This document shows, piece after piece, positions 873-44,765 of a stretch of 64,000 bases of DNA. The translations under genes and the position numbers were made by a program. The DNA comes from a phage. The notes beneath the pieces were generated by a model, which searched no databases, was not told where the DNA came from, and worked only from the letters and a program-made list of their open reading frames with translations. Location: sequence record PX880101.1; one strand, written 5' to 3'. Every line of letters begins with the position of its first letter. The stretch's first letter is position 1.

Positions 873-930
873 TGTTTAACAAAGAGTGGGAGGGGTAGTA
901 CAACCGCCTCCCCTTTAAGGAGAACTGTAT

Positions 931-3354
931 ATGAGCATGTGGTCGTTCGATTTTGAGTCATCCGGTTTGCTGGAAGACCCAGATCTTTATTATCACTGCG
1001 GTCTGTTTAAAGAGCTGAATAAGAACCGTTTTATGCTGTTCCTTCCTCTAAATGACCGCACACACTACTCCGAGGAGGATATAGAAAAGGCTAAGAACTT
1101 CATTCTGGCAAAGAAAACTCTTTATAAAGATTTTGAAGTTCGCATAGCAGATTTTTCGGAGTTGGAAGGTTGGCTTACAGGCAATTCCGACTGGTCACCA
1201 ACAGCTTTGAACTGCCATAACTGCTACAGTTATGACTTTATGCTGATGGAGAGATTGTCCGGTATTCATTTTGATATGTTCCGTGATCCTAAATGCATGG
1301 GGACTATCAACGACCACCAGGTTAACCTGTTTGATACGTTGGCGATGAGCCGAATTTTGTGGCCTGATCGCCCTCTACCAAAAGGTTGTCCGGACGCTGT
1401 ATTCAACCCGGTTACTAAGAAAATGCAGCCTGTTGGTCCTCACGGCCTTATGGCATGGGGCTACGCCCTTGGTAACCAGAAAGTTCAAATTGATGACTGG
1501 CGCGATCTTCCGTTGTGGAAGTATGTGGATCGTGTATTCGAGGACGTTATCATCCAGGAGCTGCTCTGGAAAGAGCTGGTAGCGGAATCAAAAGGTGTAT
1601 TCTACGGCAAATCTGACATGCAGAACTTTATGTACGATCCTGCCAAAGAGAAGCCGAAAGGGTTCAAGAAGATCACCTGGAAGAACGCATTACGCCGGGG
1701 TATGCTGCAGCACTTCCTGATGGAGCTGCAGGCCCGTCAGGGTGTATATTTCGACATAGATGGAGCTATTGCTTTACGTGACCGTTGTGATGCGTGGATG
1801 AAAGAGATCGCTGATCGTGTTGAACCTCAACTTCCTTTAAAAGAGTTGTCAATGTCTCAGCGGCCCAAGTTCCCTGAAAAGCCGTTTAACCAAGATGGGA
1901 CAATCTCCAATAATGGTTGGAAATGGTTAAAAGATAAGCTTGGCTATCCTGTGGACATGAGCGCTTTAGAGTTCAAAGCCCCACCTAAGCGAGCATTTAC
2001 CTCCACAGGGGATGTCAGTAAGATGGGGATAAAATGGTGTGAAGAGATGGGCTGTAAAGACCCTGATAAGATGGCTGATTTCTTGAGGGGCTATATTAAG
2101 GGCACCTCCACACCACAACCTTTACCTAAAGAGCTAATGGATCAGGCAATAAGTGATCTACAGCAGAAGCGAATGCCTGACTGCAAGATACCTATGAAAA
2201 TCAGCAATCAGGACGACATTAAGCGATACCTGATCAGTGCTGGTTGGCTTCCGACAATGTGGAGAACTAAGGATGTAACTAAAGACAGCAAGAAGAAAGC
2301 TCTACCTGATGCAGATGTTGATGCACGAGTATATGCATATATGGACGAGCTTTTAGAGTCAGAGTATTGTGACCTGATTATCAACTTCTGGAACAAAACT
2401 GATGCTAAGTTCCAGACAACCGTGCACAAGTTCCGAAGCTTTCCTAACTCCGAAAGGATTAAAAAGGAAGTATTCGGGAAAATACGTAGAAAAGCCAGGG
2501 CACTTATTACTTCTCCGCAACTGAAAGATACGTTTGGACACCTATGTCCGAATCTTGAAAAATTGAACGGAGAGATGGCTAAAGATATCGTCTTGTGGTT
2601 ATCCTTGCGAAACCGCAGATCGGTCCTTGATCCAATCAAGGAGGATAAGGTTGATACTGGTCTTCTTAATCACCCACGTTTGAAGATTGACCATAAGCTT
2701 CCTGCTAAAAGTTCTGGATTAACAAACACTTCCCGACAGAAACACAGTATTTGTGCGAACATGCCTAAACCATCTCCTAAAGTGGTTATGGGTAAAGAGA
2801 TGCGTAGTCTGTGGGGTGTTCCTCCAGGATACTTTGAGATTGGTATTGACGGGTCCAACTTAGAGCAGCTTATCGGGGCTTGGGGTGCCTTTGAGTTCGA
2901 CAACGGCTTGTATTATGATGTTGTAAGTAACGGGGACGCACACCAAAACAATGCTGAGGCATATACAAAAGTAGCAGGTAGAGAGGTGTCTCGTAACGAC
3001 GGTAAACCTATCACGTATGGGGTTATGTATGGGGCACAAAAAGATAAAGTTGCAGATATGCTGGACATCTCTCCAGAGTTGGGACAAAGGGTAATCGATG
3101 CACTCTGGGATGCCAACCCAGGTCTTAAGGGGCGCAAAGAGGATCTGGAGAAATTCTGGGAAGCAACAGGTAAGAAGTTTATCTACTCTTTTGATGGTCA
3201 TGCTATCTGGACCCGATCTAAACACTCTTTACTTAATGCATACCAACAAAATGGCGGTGCATCGTTGTGTGACTTAGTTGGAATACTCATGCACCACCAG
3301 ATGGTGAAGCGTGGGTGGTACGATGAAGGTGTTCGTCGTATTATTTATTACCAT
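931..3354 (+). CDS. DNA polymerase family A, exon 1 (3'-5' exonuclease plus polymerase motifs A and B)
   Basis: FDFESSG (Exo I), IDGSNLEQL (motif A), KPITYGVMYGA (motif B), NAYQQNGGASLCDL (helix before motif C); the unspliced frame ends IIYYH-K-stop at 3355-3360, before motif C is complete. Confidence 0.85.
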
Positions 3355-3630
3355 AAATAACATTGTGGCTTCATAGAGTAATCTATGTCGAATAACCTCT
3401 TTAACTGCGGGAAGCCTAAACCTTATGGCAAGGTAATCCGCAACGAAGCGCTCAAAAGAGCGAACGCTCAGAGGCCATTCCGAAAGGAAGTAGACCAGCA
3501 AGTGCGGTCGAAATGGGAGGATTCCTGTGGTTGCTTATCATAGGAATATGAGATGGTCCGATCCTACGTGAAAACGTATGGCTATGCACGTAAAGGTGCG
3601 GGGTAGCTTAACGACCTACCTGAACTATTG
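3355..3630 (+). other. Candidate group I self-splicing intron without ORF, inside the DNA polymerase gene
   Basis: Follows exon base U (3354) and ends in G (3630); GTGG at 3365-3368 can pair with exon end CCAU; GNRA-capped hairpins at 3372-3387 and 3478-3489; R-like UCAGAGGCCAU (3468-3478) and S-like AGAUGGUCC (3551-3559). Confidence 0.55.
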
Positions 3631-3984
3631 GATGAGTACCAACTTCAAGTCCCTGACACACCGAAGTATAAGACTGTGTACACCTTCGACACAATCGAAG
3701 AACTGGAAGCATTTAAGGCAGAGCAGGAGGCCAAACTTCATGTGTTCGACGGTCATAAGTACAAAAAGGCACGCAAGGATGAGGACGGAAACGAAGTGGT
3801 TGACAGAGACGGAAACACGGTGTACGATCCTATCCTGAATGATGACGGAAAGCTTGAACTTATCTGGAGCCCTGTGGGTGAAATGGTGGTGCATTGCTTC
3901 TGGCAAGCTTCTAAAATGATGGGCGTCCCGTTCCAGATCACAGGTGAATACTTGTGTGGTCGTAATTGGGGTGATTGTCACTAA
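3631..3984 (+). CDS. DNA polymerase family A, exon 2 (motif C Asp-Glu through conserved C-terminus)
   Basis: No ATG (only in-frame TTG at 3628); frame starts DEYQLQV, completing YH|DE motif C, and ends GRNWGDCH, like the T7 gp5 and Klenow C-termini. Confidence 0.7.
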   Translation, partial: DEYQLQVPDTPKYKTVYTFDTIEELEAFKAEQEAKLHVFDGHKYKKARKDEDGNEVVDRDGNTVYDPILNDDGKLELIWSPVGEMVVHCFWQASKMMGVPFQITGEYLCGRNWGDCH

Positions 3985-4033
3985 TGTAAACTATCAACAC
4001 ATGGAAGTGTTGTTGAGCAAAGAGGAGACTTTT

Positions 4034-40228: not shown

Positions 40229-40540
40229 TTATTTAGCAATCACTATGGAATACTTACGATTGTCAGAAGCATCACAACTCAATGATTGCCAGTCTACCAC
40301 ATACCACGTATCATTGTCAACAATTACTTTATCGCCTGTTCTGTAGCAGATGCTGCTTTCAATAATTCGAGACTCGATAAAGAATCTGTGTCGGCGCTCA
40401 CGTAGCAACGCTAAGTTGATTATGTTACCACCGCTGTCCTTGATCCACACATTCTTGGATCCTTTATTTGCCAAAATTGTCTCGCCGTTATAGACAAACA
40501 GGCAGTATATTTTATTCAGTTTCTCTTGTATTGTAGCCAT
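40229..40540 (-). CDS. hypothetical protein
   Basis: Promoter TTGACA-N17-TATTAT (40566-40597) and GAGAGAAGGA SD. Confidence 0.5.
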   Translation of the reverse strand: MATIQEKLNKIYCLFVYNGETILANKGSKNVWIKDSGGNIINLALLRERRHRFFIESRIIESSICYRTGDKVIVDNDTWYVVDWQSLSCDASDNRKYSIVIAK

Positions 40541-40565
40541 ACTGTCCTTCTCTCTGTTTTGTCCG

Positions 40566-40597
40566 ATAATAATATCTAAAGTTTACCTATTTGTCAA
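40566..40597 (-). promoter_or_regulatory. sigma70-like promoter TTGACA-N17-TATTAT (minus strand)
   Basis: Minus-strand hexamers; preceded by hairpin GGGTGG-TTATT-CCACCC, a possible terminator after phoH. Confidence 0.55.
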
Positions 40598-40641
40598 CAA
40601 CTGTTTTAGATATTTAAGGGTGGAATAACCACCCTTCTGTA

Positions 40642-41430
40642 TTACTCGGAAACAGGGGTCCAAATATGATTTGCACGATCCTCAATAAGATTGAGTGCGA
40701 TCTGACGACCCAACCCAGAACGAACGACATCGTCTGGACTATCAAAGCTGATCATTCCAACCTCAGGATCTGGATGACGAGTAAAGAAATCCGTCACCCA
40801 TGCAAGGCCAGATTTACCAGGGATGTCACGTTGGCTATTATCACCCATAATTACAAGGGTGGCTTGATCAGAGATCCTTGTGATAATTGACAACATTTCT
40901 TCAGGGTTAGTTTGCTGTGCCTCGTCAATCAGGACAAAGCATCGCTCATCGAAACTACGACCACGAATGCTTTCAACTTCACAAATCTCGATACGGCTGT
41001 TCTGACCGTCTCCCAGCATTGCGGCAAAAGCACCTTTGCCAACACGACGACAAATCGTGTCCATCATGCTTCGAAGATAGGGCCACAGTTTCTGCATTGC
41101 ATTTCCAGGTTTAAATCCTGAAGTCTTTCCTGTCTGAACGTAAGGACGTGCAACAATAATCTTATCAATCTCGTTCTTACGCAGAAGATCACCTGCATAT
41201 GCAGATGCCATGAATGTCTTACCGGATCCAAACACACCGTTTACAATAATAATCTTACGTGACCCTAGATAATCAAGATACTTTTGCTGCTTCTTATTCA
41301 TTGGTCGGAGAGCTGGAGCGGTGTGCTCTCTTTCGTCAGCAAATTTCTCAGCAGCCTTACGCAGGCGATCAGATTTGCGAGCCTCTCTAGCTTCATCACG
41401 CATGCGCTTTGTTTCTTTAGCTCGACCCAT
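40642..41430 (-). CDS. phoH: PhoH-like ATPase
   Basis: Walker A VNGVFGSGKTFMA and PhoH-like length and layout. Confidence 0.8.
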   Translation of the reverse strand: MGRAKETKRMRDEAREARKSDRLRKAAEKFADEREHTAPALRPMNKKQQKYLDYLGSRKIIIVNGVFGSGKTFMASAYAGDLLRKNEIDKIIVARPYVQTGKTSGFKPGNAMQKLWPYLRSMMDTICRRVGKGAFAAMLGDGQNSRIEICEVESIRGRSFDERCFVLIDEAQQTNPEEMLSIITRISDQATLVIMGDNSQRDIPGKSGLAWVTDFFTRHPDPEVGMISFDSPDDVVRSGLGRQIALNLIEDRANHIWTPVSE

Positions 41431-41468
41431 GTTGGGACTCCTTTCAGATTGAGATGTGCCAAGTACTT

Positions 41469-41819
41469 TTACTGCAACAGTTTTTCAATAGCCGCTTCCA
41501 TGCTGCTTGCAACAGCCTGAACTCGGATATTCATCTCTTCTTGGTGGATCAGCTCCTTAAGCTCTTTAATGGTAAATTCTTTAGAGAAACCTTCCACCAT
41601 AATCTTGTGCAAGGCTTCTTGCGTGTCTACTTGCAAGAACTTTTCCAGTTTGTTGGCAGAGGCTTCTAAATCAGCCCGAATACGAGGGTCATCTGTGCGA
41701 TTCAGCATTAGGCGTAAGCCATCAAGATTAGTAGAAATAGCATCTGCATGTTGAGTAACTAACCGTGGCAAAATGAGATCTACAAACTTATTAGCCAAAT
41801 CGATACGTTCTTGTGTCAC
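41469..41819 (-). CDS. hypothetical protein (GTG start)
   Basis: GTG overlaps the upstream stop (GTGA). Confidence 0.45.
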   Translation of the reverse strand: MTQERIDLANKFVDLILPRLVTQHADAISTNLDGLRLMLNRTDDPRIRADLEASANKLEKFLQVDTQEALHKIMVEGFSKEFTIKELKELIHQEEMNIRVQAVASSMEAAIEKLLQ

Positions 41820-41929
41820 TGTTGCACCCCCTCTTCATCTTCATGATGTTTCTTTTCACGCTTGTGTTTTTTCTTAAGCTCAAGCGCAATCTCTTTCTTG
41901 TACGCCTTCTTCAAGGCTTTTTTAGCCAT
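41816..41929 (-). CDS. hypothetical small basic protein (37 aa)
   Basis: ATG after GAGGAGGTG; K/R/H-rich; not in the supplied ORF track. Confidence 0.35.
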   Translation of the reverse strand: MAKKALKKAYKKEIALELKKKHKREKKHHEDEEGVQQ

Positions 41930-41991
41930 TTGGCACCTCCTCTGCTTTCATTACGGCAATTATAACCAACTCAACAAAGCTTTGTCAACAA

Positions 41992-42465
41992 CTAGTCTAC
42001 CTGAACCCAACCGCCTGATACTTTTTTAAACATTCTTTGGTTATCACTGCCTCGGAACGGTTTCTTGGTTGGTAAATCTTTTACATACTTACCGTCAATG
42101 ATGATATCAGCCAGTTTAAGAACATCACTAGAGATATGGTCAAATGTGAACCCAGTATATACAAGAATAGTTTTCTTGTCACCAAATTTTTCCTTAATTT
42201 TCTCCATCAGGCTAATAATATCTGGCTCATTATAGTATGCTAAGGGTTCTCCACCCAGTAGAGAGATACCGCACACAGACGGGTTATCTAAATCTGACAA
42301 GATTTTTTGCAAGTCTTCTTCAGTGAACTTCCTCCCCTTATCTTTTGACCAAAATGCCTGATTAAAGCAACCAGGGCAAGCGTGTGGGCACCCAGATACC
42401 CACAAGGCAGTTCTAATACCTGGTCCTTCGGTGTAAGATATTTCTGTGTATCCAGCAATGTTCAT
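41992..42465 (-). CDS. nrdG: Anaerobic ribonucleotide reductase activating protein (radical SAM)
   Basis: CPHACPGC CxxxCxxC cluster; adjacent to nrdD. Confidence 0.85.
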   Translation of the reverse strand: MNIAGYTEISYTEGPGIRTALWVSGCPHACPGCFNQAFWSKDKGRKFTEEDLQKILSDLDNPSVCGISLLGGEPLAYYNEPDIISLMEKIKEKFGDKKTILVYTGFTFDHISSDVLKLADIIIDGKYVKDLPTKKPFRGSDNQRMFKKVSGGWVQVD

Positions 42466-42578
42466 AGATACTCCGCATCACATTTAGGGCAATGCCAAAT
42501 AAAATCGTCTAGTGCCTTGCACCAACGAAGATTACAACTACAGCCGCACTTGCAAATTTTATAAATACCTGATGACAT
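42462..42578 (-). CDS. hypothetical zinc-ribbon micro-protein between nrdD and nrdG (38 aa)
   Basis: ATG after TAGGAGGTG; CKCGCSC...CPKC; stop overlaps the nrdG ATG. Confidence 0.4.
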   Translation of the reverse strand: MSSGIYKICKCGCSCNLRWCKALDDFIWHCPKCDAEYL

Positions 42579-42641
42579 ACTGCACCTCCTAGCTCACTGT
42601 GTGTCAATAATATGCCACATCCTTGTGGCTTTTGTCAAGAA

Positions 42642-44765
42642 TCAGCAACCACAACTTCCGTAGTGCTTAACTCGCTCGATAACTTCCGCTTGCTTACCTT
42701 TATTGTAAGGACGGGAGTTAGGACTGGAAAGGTATCCAGACACACGTCGAATTACACTGATCGTTCCCTCTTCATGGTTTCCACACTCTGGGCATACAAA
42801 GCCTTTAGCTGTTGCACTGAACTCACCAGAGAAACCACACTTGAGACATTTATCCACAGGTTGGTTAATACCAAAATACATAATGTGTTTATACCCGAAG
42901 TCAACAAGAGCCTCTAAAGCATCCAGGTTGTTTTTCAGGTTAGGTGTTTCTACGTATCCGATGTTGCCACCAGAGGAGATCATAGCAAAACCTTCCTCAT
43001 ACTCCCACTTATCAAAAGGAGAGCTATTTATCCATACTGGCTGATGGAAACTGTTGGTGAGATATTCATGCTCGTGCTTCAACACTTCCGGATATTCACG
43101 ATCCAGACAGGTTGCAGCTTTATAGCATAGACTCTCAGAAGGAGTGCCGTACAAGCTAAATGCTAGTCTACTTTCCTTCTTGTATCGCTCACAAGCATCT
43201 CTCATGTGCTGAAGGATTCCAAGAGCTAAAGCCTTGTCACCCTCTCTGCCCAAAATCTGACAGGTTTCATACACACCGATATACCCAATACTGATGGAAG
43301 CGTACCCGTCATAGAAGAGTTTATCAATACTCTCTTCAGGATCCAGGCGAGCAAGAGCGCCTTCACACCACATGATGGGGTTCTGCCCTGCCTTTGTTCC
43401 TTTTAGACGATTAACCCTTACAAGGTGAGCCTCGTATGCAAGATCCAAGTATTCGTCAAGAACTGCAAAGAAATCAACACCTTCCGTCTTGGCTTTTGCC
43501 GCAATCATTGGCAGGTTAAGGCTAACAACGCCTAAGTTAAATCTGCCAAGGTATTTCTCCTCGCCTGTTTCCAAGTCATTGTATTTGCTAAGAAAACTCC
43601 TGCAACCCATGCTAGTTACTTTGCCATCTGTCGAGCCTGTCACTTTTCTATTTAGTGGTACAGATACGAAGTCAGGATAGATACGTTCTGCACAGCATTC
43701 CAGAGCTAATCGTTTCAAATCATAGTTAGGATCCCCAGGGTTCATGTTGACACCCTCTTCCAGGAAGAACAGCACTTTAGGGAACACAGGTGTGATACGT
43801 TCTTCACCAAGACCCATTTTGTGGACTTTCAGGTAGTTTTTGGTAATCATTCTACCAAAGACCGAGGTATCCAGTCCTAAACTCAATGTGATGAATGGAG
43901 TTTGCCCGTTGACAGAAGTTAACGTGTTGATTTGATAGAGCAAAGTCTGCATGCTGTCAAATACGTCTTTATCTGTCATTTGCATTGCAACAGTTTCAGC
44001 ATCCGGCAACCAATGTTCCTGGCAAAATTTAAGGTTCTTCTCATAGGTTGCTTCAGCATACTGTGCCAGATAATGATCAATATGGCTCATAGTCTGACCA
44101 CCATATTGAGCACTAGCTACCGCACTAGAGATTTGGCTAAGGATTGTTGTTGCAACCCCTATTGACTTCGGCTTACTGACATAGGCGTTACCAATGTTGA
44201 ATCCGTTTTCCAACATATCTGGATAATTTACCAAACAACAGTTTGTTAACGGACTGATCAAGTAGTCAAGATCATGCACATGGATGAATCCTTTATTGTG
44301 CTCTTCGGAGACACGGTCTGGCAGGATCTGTGTTGATGCAAGGTGTTTGCTAAGAATACCTGCAAGCAGGTCGCGATGAGTGTGTACATGATTAGTAGGC
44401 TTATTTGCGTTTTCTTTTGTAAATTCATCACAAGTTCGATCCAAGAAGCCACTAATATCTGCAAGCAGTTTTCCACCTGCCTCTCTGTTATTATCTCTTG
44501 TCTGTCTATACTGGATGTATTCTCTGGCTGCACATTTTAAACCCATATCCATAAGAGCATCTTCAACAAGGATATGGATATTTTTTACAGAGATCGTGCA
44601 CTGGTCGGTTGGTAGATTGTTAGCAACAACTTCATTAACCGCGCAGGCGATCCGGTAAGCTTCTTCTTCAGTATGTCCAGACTCAAGTAAGGCGGACTCT
44701 GCCGCCTTGATCACCTTAATTCCGTTATAGAACTCTTCTCTACCGTCCCGTTTTACAACTTTCAC
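42642..44765 (-). CDS. nrdD: Anaerobic ribonucleoside-triphosphate reductase (class III) with ATP cone
   Basis: N-terminal ATP-cone KRDGREEFYNGIKV; glycyl-radical motif RRVSGYL near the C-terminus; cysteine cluster. Confidence 0.9.
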   Translation of the reverse strand: MKVVKRDGREEFYNGIKVIKAAESALLESGHTEEEAYRIACAVNEVVANNLPTDQCTISVKNIHILVEDALMDMGLKCAAREYIQYRQTRDNNREAGGKLLADISGFLDRTCDEFTKENANKPTNHVHTHRDLLAGILSKHLASTQILPDRVSEEHNKGFIHVHDLDYLISPLTNCCLVNYPDMLENGFNIGNAYVSKPKSIGVATTILSQISSAVASAQYGGQTMSHIDHYLAQYAEATYEKNLKFCQEHWLPDAETVAMQMTDKDVFDSMQTLLYQINTLTSVNGQTPFITLSLGLDTSVFGRMITKNYLKVHKMGLGEERITPVFPKVLFFLEEGVNMNPGDPNYDLKRLALECCAERIYPDFVSVPLNRKVTGSTDGKVTSMGCRSFLSKYNDLETGEEKYLGRFNLGVVSLNLPMIAAKAKTEGVDFFAVLDEYLDLAYEAHLVRVNRLKGTKAGQNPIMWCEGALARLDPEESIDKLFYDGYASISIGYIGVYETCQILGREGDKALALGILQHMRDACERYKKESRLAFSLYGTPSESLCYKAATCLDREYPEVLKHEHEYLTNSFHQPVWINSSPFDKWEYEEGFAMISSGGNIGYVETPNLKNNLDALEALVDFGYKHIMYFGINQPVDKCLKCGFSGEFSATAKGFVCPECGNHEEGTISVIRRVSGYLSSPNSRPYNKGKQAEVIERVKHYGSCGC

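Follow-up and report, generated by a model that had tools for sequence, protein, structure and literature searches.

The window analyzed here, a stretch of 64,000 nucleotides (nt) of phage DNA from sequence record PX880101.1, contains a DNA polymerase gene whose catalytic motif C is interrupted by 276 nt at positions 3355-3630. This interruption is best read as a group I intron of a phage family A polymerase, removed from the precursor messenger RNA (pre-mRNA) by ordinary group I splicing, and a probability of about 0.93 is assigned to this reading. The insertion, in phase 0, separates His808 from Asp809 of motif C, and its sequence, fold, covariation, exact boundaries and polymorphism among alleles are all matters of direct observation. 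Group I introns in essential phage replication genes have been known since 1990, and the intron in question is not new, being a member of a widespread, partly characterized and already annotated family of phage introns.

Over region 900-4000, the window shares 98.2% identity with Escherichia phage RudolfGeigy (Bas52) and 97-98% with phage V5/rV5 and some hundred further Vequintavirus genomes, by which likeness it is taken to belong to an rV5-like lytic coliphage. The gene beginning at 931 (+) encodes the DNA polymerase, and a primase/helicase gene lies upstream of it. In an initial annotation made from the letters alone, two pieces of this polymerase had been recognized, and the list of open reading frames (ORFs) bears both of them out: the ORF 931-3360 (+) terminates in ...GVRRIIYYHK-stop, and a frame at 3631-3984 (+), devoid of ATG, reads DEYQLQV...GRNWGDCH up to the stop codon at 3982-3984. 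ORF callers start this second frame at TTG 3628, which is formed by the final 3 nt of the intron. When 3354 is joined to 3631, as had been proposed, the frame is kept, YYHDEYQL is restored, and the product reads ...IIYYHDEYQLQV...; the in-frame joining thus stood, and the length of the product had to be amended from 926 to 925 amino acids (aa).

Compared with solved structures by phmmer, the joined protein has T7 gp5 as its sole match (E 9e-16, residues 633-813), and motifs A, B and C, together with the catalytic Asp/Glu, can be aligned to it in the manner of a family A polymerase. Motif A is GIDGSNLE in the window versus GIDASGLE in T7, and motif B is KPITYGVMYGA versus KTFIYGFLYGA, while the alignment of motif C runs continuously over the junction (IIYYHDEYQL versus MAWVHDEIQV), so that H808/D809 of the window correspond to H653/D654 of T7. 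Exon 2 alone finds no meaningful match in PDB. Its assignment as the conserved PolA C-terminus is proposed from its continuity with the annotated polymerases of intron-less phages, and in part from the C-terminal end of Klenow, ...NWDQAH.

The identity of the intervening sequence was addressed by an Rfam scan of all 64 kb at gathering thresholds, which returned a single match, RF00028 (group I catalytic intron), at 3345-3580 (+). With 64.7 bits (E 4e-14; gathering score 50), the match extends over model positions 1-253 of 253, and the covariance-model check suggested at the outset therefore came out in favor of a group I intron. In a global pairwise alignment with the intron-less phage pangalan, one gap is opened, spanning exactly 3355-3630; since its flanking bases differ, it can be placed in only one way. 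The ends of this gap are the splice sites that had been predicted, with U3354 preceding the insertion and G3630 as its last base. The terminal guanosine (ωG) is fixed by the gap relative to the intron-less allele, and every homologue likewise ends in G. When the C-terminal 195 aa of the joined product served as a tblastn query, they were found in one uninterrupted frame with 100% identity in pangalan and Campylobacter phage A12a, and with 99.5% identity in JohannBauhin and phiWec191.

An assembly or sequencing artefact, or a polymerase pseudogene, might in principle produce such an interruption, and the in-frame stop is the one feature that speaks for either. The chance of this is practically negligible. 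Twenty-three phage records, sequenced independently and including cultured lytic phages, have the same insertion with at least 99% identity over the 276 nt, and a sequencing artefact is therefore ruled out. Against a pseudogene, the exons are strictly conserved, showing 100% aa identity and synonymous differences only. The reading as a group I intron in a functional polymerase gene is further specified by its secondary structure, which is listed helix by helix in Table 1.

Table 1. Exons, intron and predicted helices of the interrupted polymerase gene (positions in the window)
Feature	Positions	Strand	Remarks
Exon 1, family A DNA polymerase	931-3354	+	808 codons, ending with His808 of motif C; includes Exo I and motifs A and B
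Group I intron, 276 nt, no homing endonuclease gene	3355-3630	+	Rfam RF00028; exact gap versus intron-less pangalan; at least 99% identical in 23 phage records
P1	3351-3368	+	Exon CCAU plus intron AA (3351-3356) with guide UUGUGG (3363-3368); Rfam alignment; invariant in 7 homologous introns
P2 hairpin	3372-3387	+	6 base pairs (bp), GUAA tetraloop; minimum-energy fold; compensatory changes in 5 of 6 pairs
P3, 5' strand	3396-3401	+	Partner 3515-3520; CCUC/GAGG to CUCC/GGAG in KP12 and Vibrio phages
P4 enclosing P5/P5a	3406-3442	+	P4 = 3406-3411 with 3437-3442; P5/P5a = 3414-3434; length of P5 varies among homologues
P6 and P6a hairpin	3443-3467	+	P6 = C3444-G3466 plus A3443·C3467; P6a 3449-3462; insertion point of the HNH ORF in sibling introns
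P7, 5' strand GGCCA	3473-3477	+	Pairs with UGGUC 3554-3558; pseudoknot helix, guanosine-binding site
P7.1	3478-3489	+	UUCC-GAAA-GGAA, GAAA loop; minimum-energy fold
P7.2	3493-3509	+	Minimum-energy fold; 3 compensatory pairs
P3, 3' strand	3515-3520	+	Covariation, alignment
P8 hairpin	3521-3547	+	11 bp in minimum-energy fold; 5 of 6 outer pairs compensatory
P7, 3' strand UGGUC	3554-3558	+	GGCCA/UGGUC versus GACUA/UAGUC, compensatory
P9 hairpin	3563-3581	+	GAAA tetraloop, U3579 bulged; 5 compensatory pairs
P9.1 and P9.2 hairpins	3586-3599 and 3601-3621	+	Between end of Rfam model and G3630
ωG, 3' splice site, P10 candidate	3630-3634	+	G3630; exon 2 GAUG (3631-3634) could pair with CAUU (3361-3364)
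Exon 2	3631-3984	+	117 codons and a stop codon; from Asp809-Glu810 (motif C) to C-terminal ...GRNWGDCH; continuous with exon 1 in intron-less phages

Folded without constraints, the sequence 3345-3640 has a minimum-energy structure of -88.4 kcal/mol (z = -2.5), in which P1, P2, P3, P4, P5, P6a, P7.1, P7.2, P8, P9, P9.1 and P9.2 are all recovered. P1 contains the wobble pair U3354·G3365 at the 5' splice site, which follows U3354, and the in-frame UAA stop at 3358-3360 is located in its loop. Several elements that had been picked out beforehand find their place in this structure. The pairing of GUGG 3365-3368 with exon CCAU 3351-3354 is the P1 that the Rfam model also draws; the GNRA-capped hairpins at 3372-3387 and 3478-3489 are P2 and P7.1, respectively; and the R/S-like elements at 3468-3478 and 3551-3559 contain the two strands of P7. 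A P10 of 4 bp is conceivable between the start of exon 2 and CAUU in the P1 region.

The stretch between P7 and the 3' strand of P3 is treated as an insertion by the Rfam model and folds into P7.1 and P7.2. Additional P7.1/P7.2 hairpins at this place characterize subgroup IA in the classification of Michel and Westhof, the type of the T4 and SPO1 introns. Both hairpins are present in the predicted fold and P7.2 covaries, so that the intron can be classed as IA-like, and probably IA2-like.

Introns at the same His/Asp site were found in several phage groups, namely in the Vequintavirus phages JEP1 (328 nt) and JLBYU08 (329 nt), Klebsiella phage KP12 (343 nt), Avunavirus 24-2-1 (317 nt), and the Vibrio phages K470 (254 nt) and qdvp001 (253 nt), as well as in Pseudomonas phage SPA01, whose intron of 792 nt carries an HNH ORF. 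For the counting of pairs, seven ORF-less same-site introns were aligned with MAFFT, SPA01 not being among them. Over these seven introns, the fold comprises 59 pairs in 11 helices, with 99.8% of cells occupied by standard pairs, and compensatory changes on both sides are present in 26 of the 59. When the partners were slid by 1-3 columns, pairing was only 32-41%, and column shuffles never matched the observed pairing or covariation. P2, P8, P9 and P9.2 have been nearly wholly rebuilt through compensatory changes, and within the core the exchanges of P3 and P7 given in Table 1 maintain pairing among the homologues. The conserved core P3-P4-P6-P7-P8, including the P3/P7 pseudoknot, is thereby borne out by covariation. 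Around the splice sites, CCAU followed by intron AA, the guide UUGUGG, and the exon 2 start GAUGA are kept in 7/7 aligned introns. Judged from this alignment, purifying selection maintains pairing in a ribozyme core that is intact.

On this basis, the following course of splicing can be proposed. A single pre-mRNA would be transcribed from the whole gene, and the intron would fold such that the guide UUGUGG forms P1 with the exon end CCAU and the adjoining AA. Free guanosine bound in P7 would attack after U3354, the base held in the wobble pair with G3365; the terminal G3630 would next occupy the guanosine site, with P10 (GAUG with CAUU) positioning exon 2. Ligation would then give ...UAC CAU joined to GAU GAG..., an mRNA for the 925-aa polymerase. 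The junction predicted in RNA is TATTACCAT followed directly by GATGAGTAC, and the peptide spanning it would read ...IIYYHDEYQLQVPDTPK. Translation of unspliced RNA would end at UAA 3358-3360, two codons into the intron, with an 809-aa product devoid of the catalytic Asp-Glu.

Several points weigh against this reading. The pair A3443·C3467 in P6 is the sole non-standard cell of the alignment and is G·U in all six homologues; the score of Pfam DNA_pol_A on the joined protein, 31.8 bits, is slightly below the curated cut-off of 34.3; and TTG 3628, which is in frame with exon 2, is taken as a start codon by some annotators, making a separate translation of exon 2 conceivable. In addition, the splicing of the window copy and its mode of spread are inferred.

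If the intron were a splicing-dead relic, the polymerase would have to be assembled from two polypeptides, one from exon 1 up to UAA 3358-3360 and the other from exon 2 beginning at the in-frame TTG 3628. Such arrangements have a precedent in the split Aeh1 NrdA around mobE, a non-splicing split-gene precedent is cited in the paper on Pectobacterium phage CB7 (PMC7344957), and RefSeq lists two separate 'DNA polymerase' coding sequences (CDSs) in both rV5 and APECc02. A two-polypeptide polymerase is nevertheless very improbable, because selection for pairing is strong (26 compensatory pairs, 99.8% of cells paired in an intact core), no Shine-Dalgarno-like sequence was seen by eye in the 20 nt upstream of TTG 3628, and the homologous same-site intron of CB7 splices. 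The split would moreover part His808 from Asp809-Glu810 within the active site. The last intron codon was also considered as a selected start, being UUG in the window and GUG, AUG or UUG in the homologues; this idea was rejected, as the pattern is not significant given that ωG is fixed and three of the four possible first bases yield start codons.

Splicing might also take place in vivo and yet not be autonomous, if it needed continued translation, an RNA chaperone, or a protein supplied by the phage or the host. T4 introns are translation-dependent in vivo, the A·C mismatch in P6 is unique to the window lineage, and P5 is short and weak relative to sibling introns. Dependence of this kind is considered unlikely, however, in view of a core that scores far over the Rfam threshold, of complete peripheral helices and GNRA loops such as those of self-splicing IA2 phage introns, and of related introns in phage polymerase genes, for which mild conditions suffice for self-splicing in vitro (PMC3428280). 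The preferred explanation remains that the polymerase pre-mRNA undergoes ordinary group I splicing.

The intron had initially been described as ORF-less and without a homing endonuclease. The former description needs qualification, since a 52-aa ATG ORF lies within it at 3385-3543 and an 86-aa out-of-frame ORF, 3578-3838, spans its 3' part and continues into exon 2; the latter stands, neither ORF having a Pfam match. Both were rejected as intron genes and are regarded as chance ORFs, with no family match for either and the frame of the 52-aa ORF interrupted by stops in the 4 homologous introns translated. A tblastn search of the 64-kb window for a homologue of the HNH protein of the sibling intron gave nothing better than E 1.5, and the intron, only 276 nt in length, encodes no endonuclease of the kind expected of a homing intron. 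In the absence of an endonuclease gene, autonomous homing is therefore impossible. Most likely, recombination with the exon sequence around it in mixed infections is what maintains and spreads the intron, and the HNH endonuclease of the same-site sibling intron may assist in its spread.

In the rV5 RefSeq record (NC_011041), the 'hypothetical proteins' gp222 and gp221 are placed inside or overlapping the intron, at the positions of the 52-aa and 86-aa ORFs of the window, and the polymerase is given as two unrelated CDSs, the first of which starts later than the ATG at 931. Such entries appear to be artefacts of annotation, passed on to related records. The polymerase intron is also missed in the 2013 genome paper on rV5, which reports a 775-aa polymerase and introns in the terminase only (PMC3606486). 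Several reference annotations, these two among them, could be corrected by replacing a truncated polymerase and the spurious intron proteins with a 925-aa joined CDS. A tRNA scan of the window found none.

Within Vequintavirus, the site is polymorphic for presence and absence of the intron among close relatives, as is typical of homing introns. About 58 records are intron-less, 24 contain the full-length 276-nt form (with an identity of at least 99% in 23), 31 contain an 842-nt form with an HNH ORF, and about three contain a 328-nt ORF-less form. The 842-nt intron (APECc02, FV3, isim and others) shares the site, the genus and the exon haplotype with the window intron, and is nearly identical to it in P1, P3, P7.2 and the last ~50 nt. 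It differs in bearing a 168-aa HNH ORF in P6 (a weak match to Pfam HNH_3) and in the sequences of P2, P5, P7/P7.1 and P8, where the changes are compensatory. The comparison indicates that the window intron is not a simple deletion derivative of the HNH form and that the two are mosaic relatives.

The mosaic can be followed segment by segment with JEP1, the ORF-less form of the HNH-intron lineage, as the reference. Identity is high in P1 (26/27), J2/3-P3-P4 (24/26), P7.2-P3' (26/28) and the last 49 nt (48/49), and low in P2 (9/16), P5 (11/23) and P8 (7/27); the window intron thus has ends of the JEP1 type, and its P7 differs as well. The JLBYU08 intron combines a P2 of the window type with a body of the JEP1 type. 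This segmental mosaicism, including that of JLBYU08, suggests that intron variants have recombined with one another.

The first 33 nt of exon 2 (3631-3663) occur in two haplotypes whose differences are purely synonymous. GAT GAG TAC CAA is found in all Vequintavirus intron-containing alleles examined except JLBYU08, which has GAT GAA TAT CAG; the intron-less pangalan and JES2013 have GAC GAA TAT CAG, and the intron-less JohannBauhin and Murica have the intron-type haplotype. Between the haplotypes, 4-7 synonymous differences are clustered in these 33 nt, with a flanking divergence of about 1-2% and 100% identical protein. The pattern may reflect co-conversion, precise intron loss, or variation in an endonuclease target.

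It is possible, if rather doubtful, that the ORF-less and HNH-bearing lineages share the site and swap helices by recombination in such a way that the ORF-less form, instead of being a decayed remnant, serves as a stable 'immunity allele', which would disrupt the HNH target and ride on the endonuclease of its sibling. If this were true, Vequintavirus would offer a natural, culturable system for the cycle of gain, loss and re-invasion of homing endonucleases. The three-state polymorphism (none, ORF-less, HNH-bearing) and the clustered synonymous exon variants of cultured E. coli phages are in any case convenient for studies of intron and endonuclease dynamics. Phylogenies built from the polymerase gene need the intron polymorphism to be masked. 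About 14-21 'Campylobacter phage' records (MG0656xx, with C. jejuni given as host) match rV5-like coliphages at this locus with 97-98% identity and include each of the three intron states; mislabelling or contamination of these genomes is the probable cause.

Counterparts of the intron have already been recorded elsewhere. In the BASEL collection, the polymerase CDS of Bas52 (RudolfGeigy, MZ501102) and Bas57 (MaxTheCat, MZ501094) is annotated as a two-piece join, and the window intron is 99.6% identical to those of MaxTheCat and rV5. Nothing substantive distinguishes the Bas52 and Bas57 introns from that of the window, and they are represented by a database annotation without structural or experimental description, the intron boundaries having been set through comparative genomics in the BASEL paper (PMC8594841). 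A homologue with experimental support belongs to CB7/phiTE (Certrevirus, Vequintavirinae). In CB7, exon CB7_51 ends in ...RRIIYYHK-stop, with CCAU followed at the splice site by AAGUAACAUUGUGG, and CB7_49 resumes with DEYQLEV. Its intron (CB7_50; 46.6 bits with RF00028) has the identical site and a homologous P1 and 3' core. Unlike the window intron, it contains an HNH endonuclease ORF and occurs in a different genus, in a polymerase gene with a second intron further upstream. Splicing of this HNH-containing polymerase intron has been demonstrated by reverse transcription PCR (RT-PCR) and Sanger sequencing (PMC7344957). A second, more upstream group I intron of the polymerase gene was seen in KP12, 24-2-1 and CB7, where about 111-124 codons are left as an internal exon; in the window, that upstream site is uninterrupted.

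Parallels exist among T7-like phages. T7 D654 is equivalent to Klenow D882, which places position 881 at the His before the catalytic Asp882. For the T7-like phages ΦI and W31, group IA2 introns are reported at position 881 of the polymerase (E. coli numbering), with the HNH endonuclease I-TslI encoded in P6a (PMC3428280). By way of the T7 alignment and this equivalence, the reported position corresponds to the His/Asp site of the window. These phages resemble the window in having group I introns in an enterobacterial phage family A polymerase, and differ in the endonuclease and in the T7-type host gene. The introns of SPO1, SP82, Bastille and Pf-WMP3 are likewise self-splicing group IA2 introns in a conserved functional region of a phage family A polymerase (PMC3428280); unlike the window intron, they occupy site 674 in the fingers subdomain and encode HNH nicking endonucleases (I-HmuI and others).

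Searching IMG/VR for exact occurrences of the P1 pattern produced 66 loci; at over 30 of these, the motif comes immediately after a polymerase exon ending in ...YH, ...TH or ...IH, in at least seven family A lineages. Two of the extra lineages tested pass the Rfam threshold with 77.4 and 68.7 bits. In SPA01 (Pakpunavirus), the last ~80 nt of the HNH-bearing intron are 83% identical to those of the window intron, and the host polymerases are about 28-41% identical at the protein level, which suggests intron transfer between distant phage groups. With the site and the element already in databases, the scientific weight of the present case is small. A mildly new angle is provided by the coexistence of ORF-less and HNH-bearing lineages as mosaics at one site, with linked synonymous exon haplotypes.

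In two IMG/VR contigs, the same P1 motif (CCAU followed by AAAUAA..UUGUGG) stands after an exon ending in ...HFH or ...KIH, and the upstream peptide resembles, by eye, an anaerobic ribonucleotide reductase. These two loci had no Rfam match at the gathering threshold, and may represent a related guide sequence reused in another gene or a chance match. The window has its own class III anaerobic ribonucleotide reductase gene, nrdD, at 42642-44765 (-), as a single ORF of 707 aa. A second intron in this gene was considered and rejected: the Rfam search found no RNA family in 40500-44500 of the window, and BLAST shows the window without the insertion present in Bas52. In Bas52, the closest relative, nrdD has a 257-nt insertion and is annotated as a join, which constitutes a second intron-like presence/absence polymorphism in which the window represents the empty allele.

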